64,000 nt of DNA, taken from NCBI GenBank assembly GCA_037137455.1, contig JBAXKG010000001.1:64418-128417 (forward strand), in the 5' to 3' direction. Positions within the stretch are counted from its first letter, which is position 1. Each line of letters begins with the position of its first letter. The stretch is from Bacteroidota bacterium (GTDB lineage: Bacteria; Bacteroidota; Bacteroidia; Bacteroidales; FEN-979). Below, one piece after another: positions 1 to 6,754 of the stretch. Both the position numbers and the translations under genes were made by a program. A model generated the notes under the pieces. The model saw only the letters and a list, made by a program, of their open reading frames with translations, was not told the origin of the DNA and ran no database searches.

Positions 1-2
1 TT

Positions 3-365
3 GTTGCAGCTGCTATTTCATCAATTGATAATGGCAGAACCGGAGAAAAATATCTTTTGTCGGGACATTGGCACAGTTTGCAAGAGTTTTCAGGCCTGAT
101 TCAATTGCATACCGGGCGAAAAACTGTAAATTCTGTTTTACCAATGTTTATCGCAAAGTTTGGGTTGCCATTTATCACGTTATATAGTAAATTATCAGGA
201 ACAAAACCTCTATATACTAATGAATCGTTGAATATTATTGCAGAGGGCAATCGAATGATCAGCAATACAAAAGCCAGAAATGAATTAAATTTTAACCCAC
301 GTCCTCTGAGTGAAACGATCAAAGACTTATTGAATTGGCTTAAGGCAAATGCAACCATTCATTAA
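3..365 (+). CDS. NAD-dependent epimerase/dehydratase (extended SDR) family protein, C-terminal fragment; the 5' end lies outside the window
   Basis: Frame 3 is open from the window edge (VAAAISSIDNGRTGEKYLLSGHW...) to TAA at 363-365. The C-terminal region resembles dihydroflavonol-reductase/HpnA-like extended SDRs, by recall only. Confidence 0.5.
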   Translation, partial: VAAAISSIDNGRTGEKYLLSGHWHSLQEFSGLIQLHTGRKTVNSVLPMFIAKFGLPFITLYSKLSGTKPLYTNESLNIIAEGNRMISNTKARNELNFNPRPLSETIKDLLNWLKANATIH

Positions 366-376
366 TTGCCCACAAC

Positions 377-1141
377 ATGAGAGAATCTACTTTTTATCTG
401 ATCGTTTATGCTTGGATAGCCATTGCGATTTTTATTTTTCCTTTAGTAATAAGGATAGTAGCGCCATATGGCCGCCATACCACCAGAAAGTGGGGCGCCA
501 TGGTTGACAACAGGACAGGTTGGGTGCTTATGGAATTGCCGGCTTTGCTCGTTTTTGCTGGTTTCTACCTCTTTGGCTCGGGAAGTCATCCCACGGTAAC
601 ATGGATTTTCTTTGGAATGTGGGTATTTCATTATATCAACCGTACCCTGGTTTTTCCTTCCAGGCTTCGTACCAAAGGAAAAAAAATGCCACTTGCCATA
701 GTCTTCATGGCAATCGGATTCAATTTTGTAAATGGATTTTTAAATGGATACTTCCTGGGTTCAATTGCAACTGAGGAACAGTATCCAATTTCATATATGA
801 CTGATCCCCGTTTTATCGGTGGTATTGTTATTTTCTTTTTGGGAATGTTTATCAACTGGCAGTCAGATAATATTCTTATTCATCTGAGGAAGCCTGGAGA
901 AACTGGCTACGTAATTCCACAAAAAGGTTTTTTCCGTATTATTTCATGCCCGAACCATTTTGGTGAACTAGTTGAGTGGTCTGGTTTTGCTTTAATTACA
1001 TGGTGTTCACCTGCGCTTGCTTTTGCTGTTTGGACGTTAGTAAACCTGATGCCCCGTGCATTGCATCACCACAAATGGTATAAAGAAACTTTTCCTGAAT
1101 ATCCCCCCGAACGCAAAGCGCTCATTCCATTTATTCTGTAA
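377..1141 (+). CDS. Steroid 5-alpha-reductase / polyprenol reductase-like membrane protein (3-oxo-5-alpha-steroid 4-dehydrogenase C-terminal domain family)
   Basis: 254-aa polytopic membrane ORF starting 11 nt after the upstream gene. The C-terminal block CPNHFGELVEWSGFAL...HHHKWYKETFPEYP is typical of the SRD5A/DUF1295 superfamily. Confidence 0.7.
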   Translation: MRESTFYLIVYAWIAIAIFIFPLVIRIVAPYGRHTTRKWGAMVDNRTGWVLMELPALLVFAGFYLFGSGSHPTVTWIFFGMWVFHYINRTLVFPSRLRTKGKKMPLAIVFMAIGFNFVNGFLNGYFLGSIATEEQYPISYMTDPRFIGGIVIFFLGMFINWQSDNILIHLRKPGETGYVIPQKGFFRIISCPNHFGELVEWSGFALITWCSPALAFAVWTLVNLMPRALHHHKWYKETFPEYPPERKALIPFIL

Positions 1142-1144
1142 AAC

Positions 1145-1464
1145 ACCGATGGGAACCGCCTCTGGCCGAAGTGGTTCCCATCCCGTTGTCCTGTTGGCCG
1201 TAGCCGACCGGAGCGTTCAAGCTACTGTTATTGTGGTTGAATTACTTAGTTGGGGTGACCCCTTCCCTTTCTTCCTGGCTCTTTTCCTTTGCTGCCCTTG
1301 CGAACCGCTCTGGCGTTGAACCCTGCTTCAAAAACCTGCCTTTTATTAACACTACCCTTGCGGATTATGTCTATTCGTAGCTTGGTCGGGAGTGCTGGTA
1401 CCTTGCGGATCCTACTTTCGCCTTCCTGTTTTTGATGCGGACCTTTTATCGCTCGCTTGAACGC
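1145..1464 (-). ncRNA. Candidate structured non-coding RNA, family not recognised (about 0.3 kb)
   Basis: The gap has no credible ORF. On the minus sense it is purine-rich and carries three GCAA loops, one GAAA loop, C(UUCG)G and C(UACG)G tetraloop hairpins. There is a perfect 10-nt long-range complement (1213-1222 with 1455-1464) and a 7-nt complement (1219-1225 with 1377-1383). A TATATTTG -7 box sits at its 5' edge and a 10-bp hairpin plus U-run at its 3' edge. Confidence 0.45.
1148..1182 (-). terminator. Hairpin with U-run closing the candidate ncRNA; it lies just past the stop of the convergent 377..1141 gene
   Basis: Perfect 10-bp stem gatgggaacc (1148-1157) / ggttcccatc (1173-1182). 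On the minus strand it is followed by GGUGUUUUAC. The loop contains cUUCGg on the minus sense. Confidence 0.45.
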
Positions 1465-1472
1465 CAAATATA
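1465..1472 (-). promoter_or_regulatory. Bacteroidetes -7 promoter box (TATATTTG) for the candidate ncRNA
   Basis: Minus-strand sequence TATATTTG matches TAnnTTTG. TTTG motifs lie upstream at plausible -33 spacing. Confidence 0.4.
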
Positions 1473-1640
1473 CTTTAACTGATTAGCAAAAAGCAAATTT
1501 TTTTTGATACAGATATGAACAATTTTCACACAAAAGTTATTAACAATTTGTTAATAACTAAAGTTTTTTAACTATCTTAGAACTAGGCCTTGAGGATAGT
1601 TAAAATCACAGGGGTGAAAAAAAAGTTAAAAACCTGTTAA

Positions 1641-1913
1641 TTACTCAATAGAAACGGTCAAACCGCGTAAAACCATCTGATCACCAAGAGGCTTGATTTC
1701 GGTATAGTCCCCTGCTTTTACACTACATTTCCCTTTAAAATGAGCTATCATAGCGCATTGTTCTGCTTGTTCCGGTTCGTGATCACAAACCTCTATCAGA
1801 GATTGGATTACAAAATCGAAAGTATTTATTTCATCATTAAAGAGAATAAGGTTACGGAGAATAGCCGAGCTATCCTGTGATATTATGGATGGTTTGTATT
1901 TCGGTTTGACCAT
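1641..1913 (-). CDS. clpS: ATP-dependent Clp protease adaptor ClpS
   Basis: 90-aa ORF with the ClpS core LFNDEINTFDFVIQSLIEVCDHEPEQAEQCAMIAHFKGKCSVKAG. Confidence 0.9.
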   Translation of the reverse strand: MVKPKYKPSIISQDSSAILRNLILFNDEINTFDFVIQSLIEVCDHEPEQAEQCAMIAHFKGKCSVKAGDYTEIKPLGDQMVLRGLTVSIE

Positions 1914-1932
1914 AAAGGTGGGTTTTAATGAG

Positions 1933-1940
1933 CAAAATTA
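1933..1940 (-). promoter_or_regulatory. -7 promoter box (TAATTTTG) upstream of clpS
   Basis: Matches TAnnTTTG on the minus strand, 19 nt before the clpS ATG. Confidence 0.4.
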
Positions 1941-1963
1941 CAAATAATCTGGGTTCAAACGTT

Positions 1964-1971
1964 TACCTTTG
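1964..1971 (+). promoter_or_regulatory. -7 promoter box (TACCTTTG) upstream of the NUDIX gene
   Basis: Matches TAnnTTTG, 21 nt before the ATG at 1993. The motif overlaps the TTG at 1969, which argues for the 1993 start. Confidence 0.4.
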
Positions 1972-1992
1972 GTTAGATATTCCAATTGGTTT

Positions 1993-2634
1993 ATGGAGTT
2001 TACAGAATTTATCCTATTACTTGAAGATCGCCTGAAGAAGCCACTTCCGGGCAAATTTGCTCAATTGAAGATGTCTTCTTTAGCGAAAGTTCAAAAGTTG
2101 ATTAATTTTCAGCCACCTTCGGATGCAACACAGAGCAGTGTTTTAATTTTGTTCTACCCTATTGAAGATGGAATTGGTCTTGCATTGATTCAGCGTCCAG
2201 AATACCAGGGAATTCATGGAGGGCAGATCAGTTTGCCAGGTGGAAAGTACGAGGAGAGTGATGAAAGTTTAATTTTTACTGCATTACGCGAAGCGAAGGA
2301 AGAGATTGGAATTGATCCGACTCAAATTCAGATCATCGGGCAACTTACTGAGTTGTACATTCCTCCAAGCCATTTCCTTGTTACCCCAGTCGTTGGGTAT
2401 CAGGCCTCAAAGCCAACGTTTACGGCTGATCCTAAAGAAGTAGCACGGATTATAGAAATACGCCTGACCGATTTAATGGATGAAAAAAGATATCAGATGA
2501 AAAAAATGAAACTAAAACTCGGATTTTCCCTTAAAGTACCAACCTATAATATCGATGACAATACCATCTGGGGCGCTACAGCCATGATTTTAAGTGAGTT
2601 ATTAGAGGTAATCAGGGATATCAATGGAAAATAG
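1993..2634 (+). CDS. NUDIX hydrolase (CoA pyrophosphatase-like)
   Basis: Nudix box GGQISLPGGKYEESDESLIFTALREAKEEIGI. The start was moved to the ATG at 1993 (MEFTEF...) because of the promoter position. Confidence 0.8.
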   Translation: MEFTEFILLLEDRLKKPLPGKFAQLKMSSLAKVQKLINFQPPSDATQSSVLILFYPIEDGIGLALIQRPEYQGIHGGQISLPGGKYEESDESLIFTALREAKEEIGIDPTQIQIIGQLTELYIPPSHFLVTPVVGYQASKPTFTADPKEVARIIEIRLTDLMDEKRYQMKKMKLKLGFSLKVPTYNIDDNTIWGATAMILSELLEVIRDINGK

Positions 2635-2638
2635 AAAA

Positions 2639-3757
2639 CTACTTAATGCTGTTTTTTGTGAAGCAGAATGATCCGGGAATTCTTCCTGTGACAAATTGTC
2701 GGATAAGGGTGCCTTTTACACTATATTGAAATGCAGCGCCATTCTGCACATAATCTTTGGCATCGCTGACGTAGATATTCCCTGTATTCGGATGAACTGC
2801 CAGCCCATAAAAAAGTCGTCCGTCAGAAGGTATAAGGGGTTGATCGGGCAATGTATTTGATGTTATTGGCATTTGAAACACTCCGCCTTTGATATAATAT
2901 ATTGTATCCCCAGATGAATTAATACATAAGCGGCTGGGAACTTCTTTGGGATTAGGGAAGGTCAATACTTTTTCGACCTCGCGCGACTCGGGGTTGATCT
3001 GAATAAGCGAAGGCGCCTCATAATTATCATAACCACCTGAACACAATACCCAAACCTTTTTATTAATATCGATCACGATTCCAACGGGTTCTTTGCCTGT
3101 TTGTATGCTATCGACGATGGAATCAGTTTGAGTGTCAATAACAAAAACCTGTGCTTTTCGCCTGGAACTAGGTTCATTGAAATTACCAATTGAATTAACA
3201 AGCATATATTTATCGAACATCAGAAGATTTTCTGTCCAGGTTGATGTTTGAATAGCGCCGGTCACTGAATTATTCCTTAGATCAATAATTGAAATATTAT
3301 TCTGAAGATTCGTAGCGTAAGCTTTATCAGAATTTACAACCTCAATATAGCGGGGAGAAAAAAGACCGGTAATTGATTTAATTGATTTAAAATCTTTGAG
3401 TGAAACGACTTCAATGCGGTTGGAGTTGTTTATTACCAGATAACCGAGGTTCCGGATAATTTTCATTGATTCAGCTACATCCCCCAGGCTTCTGGCATTT
3501 GACTTCATGAAGATGTCGTGGATTAACGTATTATTTTTATTATCCAGGAAGTTCACAGAGGCATTGCCCCAGTTATAATTTCCCTCGTTGATTATAAAAA
3601 TTCCATTTTCATAAGTCAGAGGTGTAGGTGTAGATTCGGAGGGGTCAATAATTTTTAAACGAACCGGATTTTTAGAGCAGGATGAGTTGATCAGGGAGAG
3701 GATGAGAATTGAGCAAAAAAACTGTAAACAAAATAGGGTATTAATTAATCTATTCAC
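2639..3757 (-). CDS. YncE-like / DUF5074-like beta-propeller surface lipoprotein
   Basis: Signal peptide with lipobox (LINSSC). Repeated blade-like segments and the NEGNYNWGNASV motif. The gene lies immediately downstream of a TonB-dependent receptor. Confidence 0.6.
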   Translation of the reverse strand: MNRLINTLFCLQFFCSILILSLINSSCSKNPVRLKIIDPSESTPTPLTYENGIFIINEGNYNWGNASVNFLDNKNNTLIHDIFMKSNARSLGDVAESMKIIRNLGYLVINNSNRIEVVSLKDFKSIKSITGLFSPRYIEVVNSDKAYATNLQNNISIIDLRNNSVTGAIQTSTWTENLLMFDKYMLVNSIGNFNEPSSRRKAQVFVIDTQTDSIVDSIQTGKEPVGIVIDINKKVWVLCSGGYDNYEAPSLIQINPESREVEKVLTFPNPKEVPSRLCINSSGDTIYYIKGGVFQMPITSNTLPDQPLIPSDGRLFYGLAVHPNTGNIYVSDAKDYVQNGAAFQYSVKGTLIRQFVTGRIPGSFCFTKNSIK

Positions 3758-3780
3758 TTTCAGCTGATTTGATAAAAATA

Positions 3781-5778
3781 TTATTGTTTTCGGGGGTTAG
3801 TAAAAAAAAGTTTAAAAGTAAAAGCGTAATTTATTCCTGGCATTGGCCGACTTGCGATTGATTGATAATCCAAATTTAATAGATTATTAATTTCAAATTG
3901 TAAAGATAGCATAAAATTTTTCAAACTAATATTTTTACCCAGAATAATATTCGATATGTCGTAAGCGGGCATATAAGACAAGTTGTCTTTCCCTGTATAT
4001 CTGTTACTTATGAACGAAAAATTATAGATGGCATAAAATTTCCAGCGTTCCAGTGAAACAGTTGAATTGAAGGTATGGACCGGAACATAAATCAACTGTT
4101 TGCCAATTTTATTATCGTTTGACAGGTTGGTTTTTTCATAGGTAGAGCGGCAGAAGTTGTAATTATTTTTGAGGCCGATATTAAAATGCAGGATTTCCCA
4201 ACTTACATTCAATCCTGCTTCAATACCCCTGGCAAGAACTTCATCGATATTTTCGGGCTTCCACAGGTTACTTCCTGCAACGGGCAGCCAGGTAATCATG
4301 TCATAAATCCAGGAAAAGTAACCGGTGAGGCTAGCTTCAATGAAAAGTCTGCTTTTTTTTGTTTTAAAATTAAATGTTGATCCTAATTCTGTAGTATAGT
4401 TTGTTTCGGGTTTCAAATCGGGATTCCCTGAAAGTTCCCAAAACATATCATTCAGTGTAGGGTAGCGATAATTTCTTGCAAAGTTCGATGAAAAGGCAAG
4501 GTTAATTTTGTTGAATGGCCGGTACTCTGCTCCTATTGCCGGTACAATCGGAATGAATTTCCCATCGATGAGTTCCTGGCGTAGTATCAATGATGTATTG
4601 ATTTTTTTTCCGATATTATAGTTAATTTCGATAAAAAAACTTGCAGTACTGCGGGTTTTCAATCCATTGTAAGAGTCAGAATAAACCCAATCGTAGGTAT
4701 AATCCACCCCGGGTTTGAAAGTGAAGTTGTGTATTCTGTTATATGAAAACCTTATACGGTTTATAAAGGAATAGCATTGATATTTTGCATTAATTGAGGT
4801 TCCCTTAATATAGTTCATGTATTGAGATACCAAGGCAGACCTGACCAAAAGGTTATAGTTCTTCTCTACGTATTTATATTCCATAATAGCCCTAAGTGCA
4901 TTGTCTTTCTGCGATTCATCATTGTTGATATCAGCATTAGTTGCAGCGGATGGCAGGTTCCTAATGTTATTATTGTACCAGACTTTGGCGGAAAACAGAT
5001 GTTTATCATGAAGTTTGTAGAAAAACTCTTGTGAAATATCATAGTAAATATTTGATGCATTGTTTTGTTGCATGACCTCCCCTTTATCATTTTTATAATG
5101 GAAATCATTCAAGGCAGTGGAAAAATTAAATTTCGTGTGTGATTGAAATGCTTTATTACCAGCCGTTGCACTAACATTAGTTGTATAACTATCGAAACTT
5201 GCAATTGATTGTGCCAGGGTGGCGTTAAAGAGATTATTCCAATCGGGGCTGGTTACCAAATCAATAACTCCCCCAAAGGCACCACTTGTGCGGGAAATTC
5301 CAGCAGCGCCGTATAAGATTTCAAGTCCATCAAATTGAGAGACCTGGATTTGTGAAAAATCAATCTGGCCGAGCATTGGAGAATTTAGATTGATCCCATT
5401 CCATTCAACCTGAGTATGTTGTGCTGTAGTCCCTCTGAAAGATGAGGTAGACAGCGTGTTATTTCCATATGATTTAATGAAAATTGTGGAGTGTTGCGAA
5501 AGTATGGTTGATAAATTGGCATTCACTTGTGGTACTAAGATGGAAGAATCTATTTTTGTTCTTTTAAACCCTTGGTTATCAAGAATAAAATTCGATTTGA
5601 TCTCAAATTCCGGCAGGCTTAAAGTGTCTTTAAGGTTTTGGGCTATGACACCAACAGGCTGGGAAAGAAAACTAACAGAAACCAGAAAAAAAATGGCGTA
5701 TTTGCTAAATGTCGTCAAATTAACGCGGCTACTGAGAAGTTTGATATTTGATAATTTTTTTTGTAATGGAATTTCCAT
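3781..5778 (-). CDS. TonB-dependent outer-membrane receptor (small, about 665 aa; not SusC-type)
   Basis: Signal peptide, plug-domain motifs (FRGTTAQHTQVEWNGINLNSP) and a long beta-barrel region with alternating aromatic strands. Confidence 0.85.
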   Translation of the reverse strand: MEIPLQKKLSNIKLLSSRVNLTTFSKYAIFFLVSVSFLSQPVGVIAQNLKDTLSLPEFEIKSNFILDNQGFKRTKIDSSILVPQVNANLSTILSQHSTIFIKSYGNNTLSTSSFRGTTAQHTQVEWNGINLNSPMLGQIDFSQIQVSQFDGLEILYGAAGISRTSGAFGGVIDLVTSPDWNNLFNATLAQSIASFDSYTTNVSATAGNKAFQSHTKFNFSTALNDFHYKNDKGEVMQQNNASNIYYDISQEFFYKLHDKHLFSAKVWYNNNIRNLPSAATNADINNDESQKDNALRAIMEYKYVEKNYNLLVRSALVSQYMNYIKGTSINAKYQCYSFINRIRFSYNRIHNFTFKPGVDYTYDWVYSDSYNGLKTRSTASFFIEINYNIGKKINTSLILRQELIDGKFIPIVPAIGAEYRPFNKINLAFSSNFARNYRYPTLNDMFWELSGNPDLKPETNYTTELGSTFNFKTKKSRLFIEASLTGYFSWIYDMITWLPVAGSNLWKPENIDEVLARGIEAGLNVSWEILHFNIGLKNNYNFCRSTYEKTNLSNDNKIGKQLIYVPVHTFNSTVSLERWKFYAIYNFSFISNRYTGKDNLSYMPAYDISNIILGKNISLKNFMLSLQFEINNLLNLDYQSIASRPMPGINYAFTFKLFFTNPRKQ

Positions 5779-6754
5779 CTTTCAATGAAAAGCTGGCAAG
5801 GTAAATACCTGCAGGGAACGATGACATGTCGAGAGTAGCTAACCTGGAAATTTCAGATTCAATAAGTACATTGCCTTCGATATCAGTGATTTTAAAATTA
5901 ACACAATTGAACAAATGTGAATCAAAAGTGACTTTATTTATAACCGGATTCGGGTAAATACAAACAGATGACATATCAGATAAATTATTTGTGCCCTGTG
6001 TTTTGTTATGTATCACACCGATTGCATCGAGATCAAAACCTCCGGTATCAAATGGTGTTGGCCAGGGATCATTTACAATATTGCCTTGTGAATCGAAAGT
6101 TGAATATGGGGTTTGTATGCATCCACCAACATCAACGATCCTTATCTGTGAGATATGGTTTAAATCGATTCCTGAACTATCTTTGATATCTGTAAGATCA
6201 AAAGGGGTTCCAAATCCTTGCCTGTATTTTCCAGCAAGGTTATTGATTTTAGTAGCATCAACCAACCCAAAAGTGCCTACTTGTTCATTTTCAGAAGTAA
6301 GAGAAACCGCTGGAAACCTCACAAAGCGAATTCCGTCAGAGCTCACCTCAACAAAGGCAAGTTCAAGAAAAGAATCACTAAATGAATTTTCGAATACAGC
6401 AAAATCAGGACCGGGGCGATCAACGATTGGTATATCGAATGTAAGCAAGGCTGTTCCGTTGTCGCCAAGGCTAACCACCAGTCCATCGGCCGGGCCGCTG
6501 CCCAACAGGTAGCTTCCATAGGTGGCTTTATTGTTCCCATTATATAAAAAATTGGTATCGGCCATGTTGATAAATCCTCTTTCGATTTTGCAGGTAGAAG
6601 CCCAACTTACAAAGGCTAAACTATCCATATACATAGCAGTGGTACCTGGTTGACCGGCAGGTGGAGGGTATTGTGCTTTAATGCTGGTTGAAAATAACAA
6701 TCCGATGAAAAACAAAAAGAAGCTTAGCTCAAATATTTTCATTCTTTCACTCAT
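5729..6754 (-). CDS. Secreted cell-surface protein with a T9SS C-terminal sorting domain
   Basis: N-terminal signal peptide. The C-terminal roughly 80 aa (VCIYPNPVINKVTF...AGIYLASFSL...) has a type-A Por/T9SS sorting-domain pattern. The 3' end overlaps the TBDT start by 50 nt. Confidence 0.6.
   Translation of the reverse strand: MSERMKIFELSFFLFFIGLLFSTSIKAQYPPPAGQPGTTAMYMDSLAFVSWASTCKIERGFINMADTNFLYNGNNKATYGSYLLGSGPADGLVVSLGDNGTALLTFDIPIVDRPGPDFAVFENSFSDSFLELAFVEVSSDGIRFVRFPAVSLTSENEQVGTFGLVDATKINNLAGKYRQGFGTPFDLTDIKDSSGIDLNHISQIRIVDVGGCIQTPYSTFDSQGNIVNDPWPTPFDTGGFDLDAIGVIHNKTQGTNNLSDMSSVCIYPNPVINKVTFDSHLFNCVNFKITDIEGNVLIESEISRLATLDMSSFPAGIYLASFSLKDGNSITKKIIKYQTSQ

Follow-up and report, generated by a model that had tools for sequence, protein, structure and literature searches.

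We report here that positions 1140-1460 on the minus strand of a 64-kb stretch of Bacteroidota DNA (hereafter the window, meaning the whole stretch analysed) form a stand-alone gene for a structured non-coding RNA of ~321 nt, as confirmed by sequence comparison. The comparative data are decisive in this respect, since ~60 homologues share the core and the promoter box and preserve the helices through compensatory changes. The gene appears to be transcribed separately, from a promoter of its own, and its product is a candidate for a new class of functional RNA outside all catalogued families. Taken as a whole, the evidence is best explained by an RNA that acts in trans, binds protein and is transcribed from a regulated promoter, an interpretation that we hold with middling confidence.

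Identification of the RNA gene

The intergenic gap between an SRD5A-like gene and clpS spans positions 1142-1640 of the window (499 nt), and GC content is 49-56% over 1101-1450 compared to 25-44% in the flanking DNA. A sequence-only reading of this gap had proposed an orphan structured RNA on the minus strand, equipped with a Bacteroidetes-type promoter and a terminator. Each applicable test agreed with this proposal, and every sequence feature it had listed was located where it had been placed, although not all of them proved to be conserved. Folding of the minus strand gave a minimum free energy (MFE) of -107 kcal/mol (z = -3.5), but the plus strand also reached z = -3.0, so single-sequence folding cannot settle the strand. 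The minus-strand reading comes from the alignments, with 377 G.U cells against 135 A.C cells, and is also backed by the orientation of the promoter and the U-tract. A covariance model of the full-length RNA (R3) scored 412 bits on 1140-1460 of the minus strand, the only copy in the window, and matched every family locus but none of five control loci. The features of the locus, from upstream to downstream of the RNA, are as follows.

1536-1558, upstream palindrome GTTATTAACAAATTGTTAATAAC, 23 bp; putative operator or activator site
1512-1522, minus strand, TTGTTCATATC, a third half-site resembling TTGTTnATAnC, located between palindrome and -33 element
1494-1497, minus strand, -33 element TTTG of a Bacteroidetes sigma-A-type promoter
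1465-1472, minus strand, -7 box TATATTTG (consensus TAnnTTTG)
1140-1460, minus strand, RNA gene, ~321 nt, running from the 5' end of P1 through the U-tract
1455-1460, minus strand, P1 5' strand UCAAGC, pairing with 1217-1222
1444-1454, minus strand, J1/2 GAGCGAUAAAA, invariant 5' strand of the core internal loop
1441-1443, minus strand, P2 5' strand GGU, pairing with 1235-1237 and closing the central domain
1322-1440, minus strand, Domain 1, three-way junction of P3, P4 and P5
1425-1438 with 1325-1335, minus strand, P3, pairs switching between AU, GC and UA (for example 13, 13 and 11)
1384-1426, minus strand, P4, long irregular hairpin capped by GCAA
1338-1381, minus strand, P5, hairpin capped by GCAA
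1238-1324, minus strand, Domain 2, comprising P6, a purine-rich linker and P7
1277-1322, minus strand, P6, hairpin capped by GCAA
1273-1275 with 1239-1241, minus strand, short outer helix of Domain 2
1252-1262, minus strand, P7, GGG(G)-GNRA-like-CCC, following the purine-rich linker
1223-1234, minus strand, J2/1 ACAAUAACAGUA, 3' strand of the core internal loop
1217-1222, minus strand, P1 3' strand GCUUGA, pairing with 1455-1460
1190-1211, minus strand, P8, 9-bp hairpin with a C(UACG)G cap
1148-1182, minus strand, P9, 15-bp terminator hairpin; core GGGAA/UUCCC (invariant), loop GNNNA or GNRA
1140-1147, minus strand, U-rich tail GGUGUUUU, directly after P9

Promoter elements, a palindrome and a predicted terminator accompany the RNA

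The consensus for sigma-A (sigma-ABfr) comprises TAnnTTTG at around -7 and TTTG at around -33 (PMC7366714), and the sequence upstream of the RNA conforms to Bacteroidetes promoters of this type. The -7 box, already recognised in the sequence-only reading, occurs as TAnnTTTG in 63/63 distinct upstream regions and ends 5-7 nt before the CAAG of P1, while a (T/C/A)TTG is found at a fixed distance across the family (in the window, 21 nt upstream of the -7 box). Given the positions of these two elements, transcription probably starts just before CAAG, at the first nucleotide of P1, so that only the 6-bp closing helix is real. The earlier caveat that part of the 5' pairing strand could be lost was therefore right. 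In the window the 5' GCGUUCAAGC can indeed pair with the 3' GCUUGAACGC, as had been noted, but closure beyond 6 bp is not conserved, and positions -2 to -4 of the supposed 10-11-bp helix pair at chance level. A simple sigma-70 scan is irrelevant to promoters of the Bacteroidetes type.

The perfect, AT-rich palindrome lies 94-96 nt upstream of CAAG in 89/90 family instances, whatever the neighbouring genes, and is unique in the 64-kb window (chance expectation 0). Searches for further copies, which might have pointed to a regulon, returned none elsewhere in the window and essentially none in 777 kb of loci. The centre of the palindrome varies by 1 nt (14- and 15-nt versions), which is unusual for the site of a dimeric factor. 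As judged by eye rather than by statistics, a TGT(T/G)nA(T/A)A-like motif occupies the position of the third half-site in upstream regions of all size classes.

At the other end, P9 and the U-tract have the form of an intrinsic terminator, and the hairpin with its GGUGUUUU tail in the sequence-only reading is upheld by the family: 95.6% of P9 cells are paired, double-sided changes occur in 9/15 pairs, and a U-tract ((G)GUGUUUU or UUUGUUUU) follows in all members. In the window this tail shares positions with the stop codon that closes the convergent SRD5A-like gene at 1141. A simple terminator scan did not list the 1148-1182 hairpin, presumably because the A.C mismatch that splits its stem takes it outside the stem and loop criteria of the scan.

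Covariation supports a multi-helix fold around an invariant core

The full-length alignment (A10) contains 87 base pairs, with 86.9% of 4413 cells paired and double-sided changes in 60/87 pairs; as the pair-count alignments were fitted to a model derived from the MFE fold of the window itself, these counts are biased upward, whereas a MAFFT-only alignment of the core is free of that bias. The covariation score of A10 was 0.305 compared to 0.139 after shuffling (reached in 0/500), slid controls gave 0.03-0.07, and independent sub-alignments agreed with the fold. RNAalifold on plain MAFFT alignments recovered the conserved helices only, because the variable ones were misaligned, and covariance-model alignments were used in their place for the variable helices. 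The resulting order of elements is P1-loop-P2-[P3/P4/P5]-[P6/P7]-P2'-loop-P1'-P8-P9, with five branch points in model R3.

The core consists of an invariant, asymmetric internal loop, with strands GAGNGAUAAAA and ANAAUAACNGUA, flanked by P1 (6 bp) and P2 (3 bp); the consensus of this core, CAAGY-GAGNGAUAAAAGG / CCANAAUAACNGUAR-CUUG, closes the central domain. CAAG/CUUG is invariant in P1, and the pairs next to it vary, being CG (16), UG (15), UA (13) or other (11) at the fifth position and UA (27), UG (9), CG (6) or GU (2) at the sixth. The third pair of P2 covaries with all of its cells paired (UA 20, CG 19, UG 11, GC 3). J1/2 (GAG-N-GAUAAAA) is identical in 44/44 aligned core sequences, and J2/1 (A-N-AAUAAC-N-GUA) is nearly invariant in all size classes, GUA being replaced by AUA, UUA or GCA in loci L082, L107 and L037. 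The loop strands stay constant throughout while the central domain ranges from ~120 to 480 nt.

Within the central domain, most hairpins are GNRA-capped, and the three GCAA-capped hairpins reported earlier are present at ~1294-1305, 1354-1365 and 1401-1408. Domain 1 (model R1, alignment A6) is 82% paired with double-sided changes in 26/34 pairs and a score of 0.328 compared to 0.128, and Domain 2 (model R2, alignment A8) is 85.8% paired with double-sided changes in 14/20 pairs and a score of 0.413 compared to 0.195. L026 and L095 lack Domain 2, and L014 has a truncated version of it. The purine run that had been singled out is indeed present at 1259-1299. The purine-rich linker is conserved in composition and not in sequence. 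Outside the core, P8 shows double-sided changes in 8/9 pairs with a loop ACGG that is invariant or nearly so, and the GGC(UACG)GCC of the sequence-only reading is confirmed at 1196-1205.

Several other elements of that reading exist in the window without being conserved, and we regard them as not meaningful. A pseudoknot-like double pairing of GUAGCUU-GAACGC had been drawn with AAGCUAC (1377-1383), where close relatives have GGCUCC or CGCAAC. The supposed c(UUCG)g tetraloop is UGUCGG in other members, and the conserved reading is of U-A and C-G pairs closing the GNNNA loop of P9. Likewise, in the family model C(GAAA)G is not a tetraloop but lies on one side of an internal loop within a long hairpin, and its would-be closing pair is G.G in some members. 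An all-versus-all scan of 26 sequences for additional covarying pairs or pseudoknots gave no run of adjacent candidate pairs and was swamped by G/U-rich columns, so no tertiary pairing is claimed.

The RNA matches no catalogued family

As the earlier reading had anticipated from inspection by eye, no match to the 4227 models of Rfam 15 was obtained at gathering thresholds across the whole window. A permissive search of 1050-1700 (E ≤ 10) yielded three chance-level matches of 11-17 bits against thresholds of 50-100, nothing overlapped the RNA in eight divergent members at E ≤ 0.5, and ARAGORN found no tRNA or tmRNA gene in the window. RNase P RNA was rejected, with no covariance-model match even at E ≤ 10, a different helix order and no P4 pseudoknot. 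So was 6S RNA, since P1 has only 6 bp, the centre is branched and no 6S, 6S-Flavo or Bacteroidales-1 model matched. A riboswitch or cis-acting leader, including the cobalamin type, is contradicted by a downstream gene that is convergent in the main class and unrelated or absent elsewhere, again with no covariance-model match. An IscB/TnpB omega RNA or other mobile-element RNA disagrees with the single copy, the lack of such ORFs at the loci and the conservation of both ends, and homology to ROOL, GOLLD or OLE is absent, their Rfam models being silent. A small-protein gene was rejected as well, there being no ORF conserved in frame and length. The literature was also searched for a comparable RNA in Bacteroidota, for RNAs linked to clpS and for the motif of the palindrome, and no relevant description came up.

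Distribution and genomic context

Pattern scans of genomes and metagenomes recovered ~60 distinct variants, nearly all in Bacteroidota MAGs at one copy per genome, and it is across these variants that the conservation and covariation described above are strong. All 30 matches in genome contigs were family members, one per genome, as were 51/54 matches in metagenomes; record titles assign 29 of the 30 genomes to Bacteroidota, its families or an unclassified bacterium, and one to Alphaproteobacteria. The carriers are, without exception, uncultured MAGs or metagenome contigs. Judged from record titles, they appear to originate from anoxic, stratified waters and sediments, and the function of the RNA may thus relate to life there.

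In the main class the RNA shares its strand with clpS and lies 107-198 nt (usually 182-198) 3' of the clpS stop codon, with two outliers at 284 and 534 nt, and the next gene, on the SRD5A-like side, is convergent. This synteny is stable down to 52% ClpS identity, which argues for vertical descent. At least five further contexts that lack the clpS and SRD5A neighbours contain the same module of RNA and promoter, in keeping with the earlier observation that there is no downstream gene for it to regulate in cis. The other size classes adjoin unrelated genes (for example accC, an ORF that we take to be glycyl-tRNA synthetase-like, a methyltransferase, SRAP and Bcp), and two non-clpS-class neighbours have no Pfam match. 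A constant protein neighbour was sought across contexts and not found, the non-clpS neighbours being unrelated housekeeping genes. A NUDIX neighbour was considered as an NrtR-type regulator and dropped, as it is missing from other contexts and has a NUDIX domain only. In L009-L011 the RNA is cleanly deleted, indicating that it is dispensable in some lineages. Searches of phages, plasmids and viral contigs gave no match to the RNA.

Discussion

We propose that the RNA acts in trans and not on a neighbouring gene. Its functional site would be the invariant irregular helix P1-loop-P2, most likely a protein-recognition platform by analogy with ribonucleoproteins of the SRP, Y or 6S type; the GNRA-capped peripheral helices may pack so as to hold this platform in shape, and a transcription factor bound to the rigidly placed palindrome ~95 nt upstream would control synthesis. 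No protein gene is consistently adjacent, so the idea of a protein partner comes entirely from the analogy with RNAs that possess an invariant irregular helix. The core loop could equally be a catalytic or ligand-binding core. A bolder possibility, which we consider rather unlikely, is a new class of large, complex-folded bacterial RNA with an RNA-based activity (catalysis, ligand sensing in trans or self-assembly) centred on the GAGNGAUAAAA / ANAAUAACNGUA loop and switched on by a dedicated factor through the -95 palindrome in anaerobic Bacteroidota.

Among the alternatives, an RNA that works free of protein, either as a ribozyme with its active site in the internal loop or as a self-assembling particle like ROOL, GOLLD or OLE, survives best, tentative as it is. 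Invariant junction nucleotides flanked by covarying helices would fit such an activity, and five GNRA or GNRA-like loops (P4, P5, P6, P7 and P9) are available for tetraloop-receptor contacts within or between molecules. Large orphan bacterial RNAs have recently been reported to homo-oligomerise (PMC12286853). However, no cleavage-site signature was found, nor any pseudoknot or conserved palindromic kissing loop; the GGCC of the P9 loop varies among members, and Domain 2 can be lost. Moreover, at ~320 nt the RNA is much smaller than ROOL and GOLLD.

Less probable still is a base-pairing regulatory RNA or sponge that acts through GAUAAAA, AAUAAC and the purine-rich linker before P7. The predicted promoter with its regulatory site and the predicted terminator recall stress-induced sRNAs, conserved unpaired segments are present, and the linker in the window contains AGAAAGG, complementary to CCUUUCU, which we take to be the 3' end of Bacteroidetes 16S rRNA. 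Yet the RNA is much larger and more structured than typical seed-pairing sRNAs, the linker keeps its composition but not its sequence, and the invariant strands are opposed in one internal loop, where they are probably engaged in non-canonical pairs.

A cis-acting role, whether as the 3' UTR of clpS or a product of its processing, as a leader or riboswitch, or as an element antisense to, or terminating, the convergent SRD5A-like gene, is largely refuted by the context data, and we consider it very improbable. Main-class copies do always follow the clpS stop codon, in the same orientation as clpS, the terminator abuts the SRD5A stop codon, and a 257-aa ORF lies downstream on the same strand in 3/5 loci of the 306-nt class and in the 424-nt variant L079. 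Nevertheless, this ORF is not present in L101 (in L060 the downstream region is cut off), a strong predicted terminator ends the RNA, and every copy has its own -33/-7 promoter and upstream palindrome, including those in the five or more contexts away from clpS and SRD5A.

A degenerate or domesticated mobile-element RNA, such as an orphan IscB/TnpB guide or a palindrome-associated element with the palindrome as transposon-end hairpin, has only a slight chance of being right. It would account for the presence or absence of the RNA in related lineages, for the perfect palindrome, AT-rich and with a loop that differs by 1 nt in length between copies, and for a structured RNA in the size range of omega RNAs. 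Against this stand the single copy per genome and per window, the stable synteny at ClpS identities down to 52%, the absence of any nearby transposase, IscB or TnpB ORF, the silence of HEARO and all other Rfam models, the lack of matches in viral contigs, phages and plasmids, and a 5' end that is the invariant P1 and not a variable guide. Furthermore, AAAACACC, complementary to the U-tail, is still present at the empty site in L009, which points to a deletion in this RNA-less lineage and not to an unfilled target. Lastly, a small protein, for which a 73-aa ORF with a TTG start exists in the window (1246-1467, minus strand), is already refuted by ORF comparison and has next to no chance: the 60 variants have longest sense ORFs of anything between 21 and 100 aa, in differing frames and with differing starts, indels are not multiples of three, and helix substitutions are compensatory.

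Bacterial RNAs of more than 300 nt with an elaborate, covariation-supported fold are rare, with roughly a dozen classes beyond rRNA, and to our knowledge almost every large-RNA class that has been solved has proved to be a ribozyme, to form the core of a ribonucleoprotein or, in recent cases, to assemble from RNA alone. We know of no Hfq, ProQ or CsrA in Bacteroidota, and a candidate class is added here in a phylum whose RNA biology is poorly known. The invariant core combined with centres of ~120-480 nt offers natural minimal constructs, for example the ~250-nt Flammeovirgaceae version, and the rigidly positioned palindrome should lead to the regulator and then to the condition in which the RNA matters.

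Comparison with known RNAs

HEARO and the omega RNAs of IscB are also structured, have 200-350 nt and can occur without an adjacent ORF; the RNA described here, by contrast, is inherited vertically as a single copy, lacks a variable guide and is not accompanied by an IscB, IsrB or TnpB gene. Bacterial RNase P RNA of type A is of similar size, and its 5' end pairs with a distal segment. The P4 pseudoknot of RNase P has the conserved strands GAGGAAAGUCC and ACAGAA-N-GGCUUA, and we see a presumed resemblance in the A-rich strands (GAUAAAAGG to GAGGAAAGUCC, and ACAAUAAC..GCUUG to ACAGAA..GGCUUA). However, our RNA has another helix order, is without P4 and carries two hairpins 3' of its closing helix.

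Y and SRP RNAs share a conserved irregular helix that is built from distant parts of the chain and adjoins a variable body. The GUA/GA beside P1 is presumably akin to the bulged-G (loop E / S-turn) module to which proteins often bind, but the replacement of GUA in three members (by AUA, UUA or GCA) speaks against this likeness, no Ro, Rsr or Ffh-type gene lies nearby, and Rfam gives no match. 6S RNA, of which Bacteroides has a validated example (PMC7366714), is likewise a trans-acting RNA of housekeeping type, with a large internal loop enclosed by pairing between its 5' and 3' parts. It is, however, rod-shaped and ~180 nt long, its closing stem is long and the sequence of its bubble is poorly conserved, whereas our RNA combines a 6-bp closure and an invariant loop with a multi-branched variable centre and two hairpins after P1.

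OLE, ROOL and GOLLD resemble it as GC-rich islands in AT-rich genomes with many covarying helices and abundant GNRA loops, and a biochemical function is not established for any of them. They are longer (~580-800 nt compared to ~321 nt), ROOL and GOLLD are often prophage-borne, and OLE has the partner proteins OapA, OapB and OapC while our RNA is known from sequence alone. The raiA motif RNA of Bacillota and Actinomycetota differs in phylum and architecture, its Rfam model is silent on our RNA, and it occurs in thousands of species as opposed to ~30 species-level genomes. In other respects the raiA motif is reported to be alike (PMC12968392 and PMC11706538): it is a stand-alone RNA of a few hundred nucleotides with its own promoter and terminator, it sits beside a particular protein gene without regulating it, and it combines a multi-helix fold with invariant junction nucleotides and a function that is likewise not established.

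A structured RNA gene between clpS and an SRD5A-like gene

The RNA gene, about 321 nt on the minus strand (1140-1460), lies in the 499-nt spacer between an SRD5A-like gene and clpS, where GC content is 49-56% at about 1100-1450 vs 25-44% in both flanks. All motifs listed by the sequence-only reading were indeed present on the minus strand where it had placed them. The features are as follows.

377-1141, plus: SRD5A-like gene (Pfam Steroid_dh match)
1148-1182, minus: hairpin followed by GGUGUUUU
1259-1299, minus: purine run
Minus: three GCAA-capped hairpins
Minus: GGC(UACG)GCC
1465-1472, minus: -7 box, TATATTTG
1512-1522: third similar half-site, a TTGTTnATA-like repeat, after the palindrome
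1536-1558: perfect 23-bp AT-rich palindrome, GTTATTAACAAATTGTTAATAAC, its distance from P1 fixed at 94-96 nt
1641-1913, minus: clpS (Pfam ClpS match)

The helices run P1, core loop, P2, domain 1 (P3-P5), domain 2 (P6, P7), the closing strands of P2 and P1, P8 and P9, the terminator hairpin. Folding energy on the minus strand was -107 kcal/mol (z = -3.5), and the plus-strand z of -3.0 is so near that single-sequence folding shows structure, not strand. The U-tract (1140-1147) overlaps the stop codon (1139-1141) of the convergent SRD5A-like gene, so the 1148-1182 hairpin could, as its position suggests, terminate transcription from both directions.

Contigs with SRD5A homologues of 67-87% identity keep the window's gene order, most with a conserved SRD5A-clpS gap of 530-595 nt. 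A search pattern derived from a first alignment, CAAGNGAGNGATAAAAGG-N15-30-GNGAAAG, retrieved 30 stretches in 30 species-level genomes, titled mostly Bacteroidales, Prolixibacteraceae and Lentimicrobiaceae, with one Flammeovirgaceae and one Alphaproteobacteria, and 54 stretches in metagenomes, three of them chance matches; about 60 distinct variants resulted in total. The contig labelled 'Alphaproteobacteria bacterium' (L048, SACF01000013.1) has the RNA flanked by ClpS, SRD5A and NUDIX genes, all much like those in the Bacteroidales lineage of loci L012 and L049, and its label is probably a binning error. Record titles of carriers (Lac Pavin, Black Sea 750 m, Powell Lake, ELA lakes, sulfidic cave) suggest a habitat of anoxic, stratified waters and sediments.

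Conserved anatomy and promoter module

Two core elements are common to every member, (C)CAAG-Y-GAG-N-GAUAAAAGG on the 5' side and, 3' of it, CCA-N-AAUAAC-N-GUA-R-CUUG(G). After the second come a hairpin capped by C(UACG)G, another whose GGGAA/UUCCC core does not vary, and a U-tract. By the spacing of the two core strands, members fall into size classes of 156, 175, 207, 235-254 (243 in the window), 306-307, 402-424 and 518 nt; since the core is invariant across them, it is the fixed part and the centre an expandable domain. Natural deletions occur: L026 (2455-2686) and L095 (two records) are without the whole P6-P7 domain and keep the core, domain 1 and the 3' hairpins, and L014 (3351-3634) equals L012 except for about 31 nt missing inside P6. 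In L009-L011 the SRD5A-clpS spacer is only 23 nt (L009:3766-3788; SRD5A homologue P0017) and starts with AACACC, which is complementary to the U-tail region of the RNA. Retention of this remnant points to loss by deletion, apparently of the entire RNA gene together with its promoter.

TAnnTTTG ends 5-7 nt before CAAG in 63/63 distinct upstream regions, upholding the Bacteroidetes-type promoter first proposed by eye, and about 21 nt upstream of this -7 box is a -33 element containing TTG; both fit the consensus that PMC7366714 quotes for Bacteroidetes sigma-A. We had not expected the palindrome GTTATTAACAA(A)TTGTTAATAAC, which in 89 of 90 instances, and in all genomic contexts, precedes CAAG by 94-96 nt; its centre varies between versions of 14 and 15 nt. 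The 64-kb window has a single copy, and 777 kb of loci have essentially none away from this position. As the module is kept in every context, the transferable unit runs from palindrome through promoter and RNA to terminator, an arrangement that points to dedicated transcriptional control by a putative factor.

Covariation and fold

For 44 variants, the core was aligned together with the 3' part by MAFFT, without structural fitting and with an artificial T6 linker in place of the centre. In this alignment 91.7% of cells were paired and covariation was 0.377 vs 0.206 in shuffles (0/500) and 0.05-0.11 for slid partners; the third pair of P2 reads UA 18, CG 15, UG 9 and GC 1, and both-sided changes occur in 8/9 pairs of P8 and 8/15 of P9. 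The centre was aligned with covariance models seeded on the window's own fold. Domain 1, where P3 closes the three-way junction that it forms with P4 and P5, was 82% paired, with double changes in 26 of 34 pairs and covariation of 0.328 vs 0.128, and domain 2 was 85.8% paired (0.413 vs 0.195). The full-length model (321 positions, 87 pairs) detects every member and 0/5 control loci; its alignment was 86.9% paired, with double changes in 60/87 pairs and covariation of 0.305 vs 0.139 (0/500 shuffles; slid controls 0.03-0.07). Such model-fitted pair counts are biased towards the model, and the unfitted core alignment gives the same picture. G.U cells outnumber A.C cells (377 vs 135), an excess in favour of the window's minus strand as sense.

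Several finer points of the sequence-only reading fared less well. Its longer closing helix reduces to a P1 of 6 bp, outside which pairing is at chance level; the pair just outside CAAG/CUUG reads UA 29, UG 10, CG 9, GU 2, GA 9 and AA 1 in 60 distinct full-length variants. Given the -7 box spacing, the RNA probably starts at P1, and the window's GCGUU/AACGC extension falls upstream of this probable start, as its caveat about the 5' pairing strand had anticipated. The pseudoknot through an internal AAGCUAC is unsupported, that motif being found in the window alone. Where it saw a c(UUCG)g tetraloop other members have other sequences, the conserved feature being a GNNNA/GNRA loop closed by U-A and C-G, and its GAAA tetraloop, part of GGYGAAAG, is best read as one internal-loop strand in P4.

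Genomic context and possible roles

In the main class, sited as in the window, clpS and the RNA share a strand, and the RNA follows the clpS stop at a distance of 107-198 nt (usually 182-198; outliers 284 and 534). This spacing persists over ClpS identities of 52-80%, so the gene order is old and vertically inherited. The spacer upstream of the palindrome (window 1559-1640, main-class loci), with for example ACAGGTT just past the clpS stop, may hold further conserved signals given the near-constant distance. The recurrent neighbourhood (window 1-5800, syntenic L005-L023) comprises SRPBCC/GyrI-like, 3-beta-HSD/epimerase-like dehydrogenase, SRD5A-like reductase, (RNA), clpS, NUDIX hydrolase, DUF5074 and TonB-dependent receptor genes; the presence of both a reductase and a dehydrogenase of steroid type in anaerobic Bacteroidales may merit study of its own.

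Other classes have unrelated neighbours: accC and a 257-aa protein without Pfam match, a methyltransferase, SRAP peptidase, Bcp peroxiredoxin and what we take to be glycyl-tRNA synthetase. The 257-aa gene immediately follows the RNA, in the same orientation, in four of six loci examined, from the 306-nt class and its related 424-nt variant L079 (L045:3218-3991, minus; also L031, L072 and L079); L101 lacks it, and the L060 sequence ends before the downstream region. No protein neighbour is constant across the genomic contexts examined.

Taken together, comparison across loci has shown a conserved single-copy non-coding gene with its own promoter and terminator, a multi-domain fold backed by covariation and an internal loop that does not vary, and we are nearly certain that this structured RNA is real. 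A trans-acting, protein-binding role has, in our judgement, an even chance. The functional site would be the invariant irregular helix P1-loop-P2, most likely bound by protein, with GNRA-capped helices providing tertiary packing; the GUA/GA arrangement beside P1 may recall a bulged-G module. Activity of the RNA alone, as a ribozyme or by self-assembly, is unlikely, and a base-pairing regulator or sponge is more doubtful still. A cis element is highly improbable, since other size classes adjoin unrelated genes, and a mobile-element RNA even more so; nothing similar turned up in phage or plasmid collections or in viral contigs. A small protein is practically dismissed: no ORF is conserved across members, the longest differing in frame, start and length, in keeping with the earlier impression of no credible ORF.

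Rfam 15 gave no match at gathering thresholds in the entire 64 kb, three chance-level matches at E <= 10 in 1050-1700, and none at E <= 0.5 on eight divergent homologues, agreeing with the initial failure to match it by eye to RNase P, tmRNA, SRP, 6S or a cobalamin riboswitch; ARAGORN found no tRNA or tmRNA, and literature searches found no description of such an RNA. The family is new, matching no catalogued family in sequence and structure. Its architecture is unlike that of RNase P, 6S, SRP, tmRNA, raiA, OLE, ROOL, GOLLD or HEARO; in kind, it is like the orphan large non-coding RNAs.
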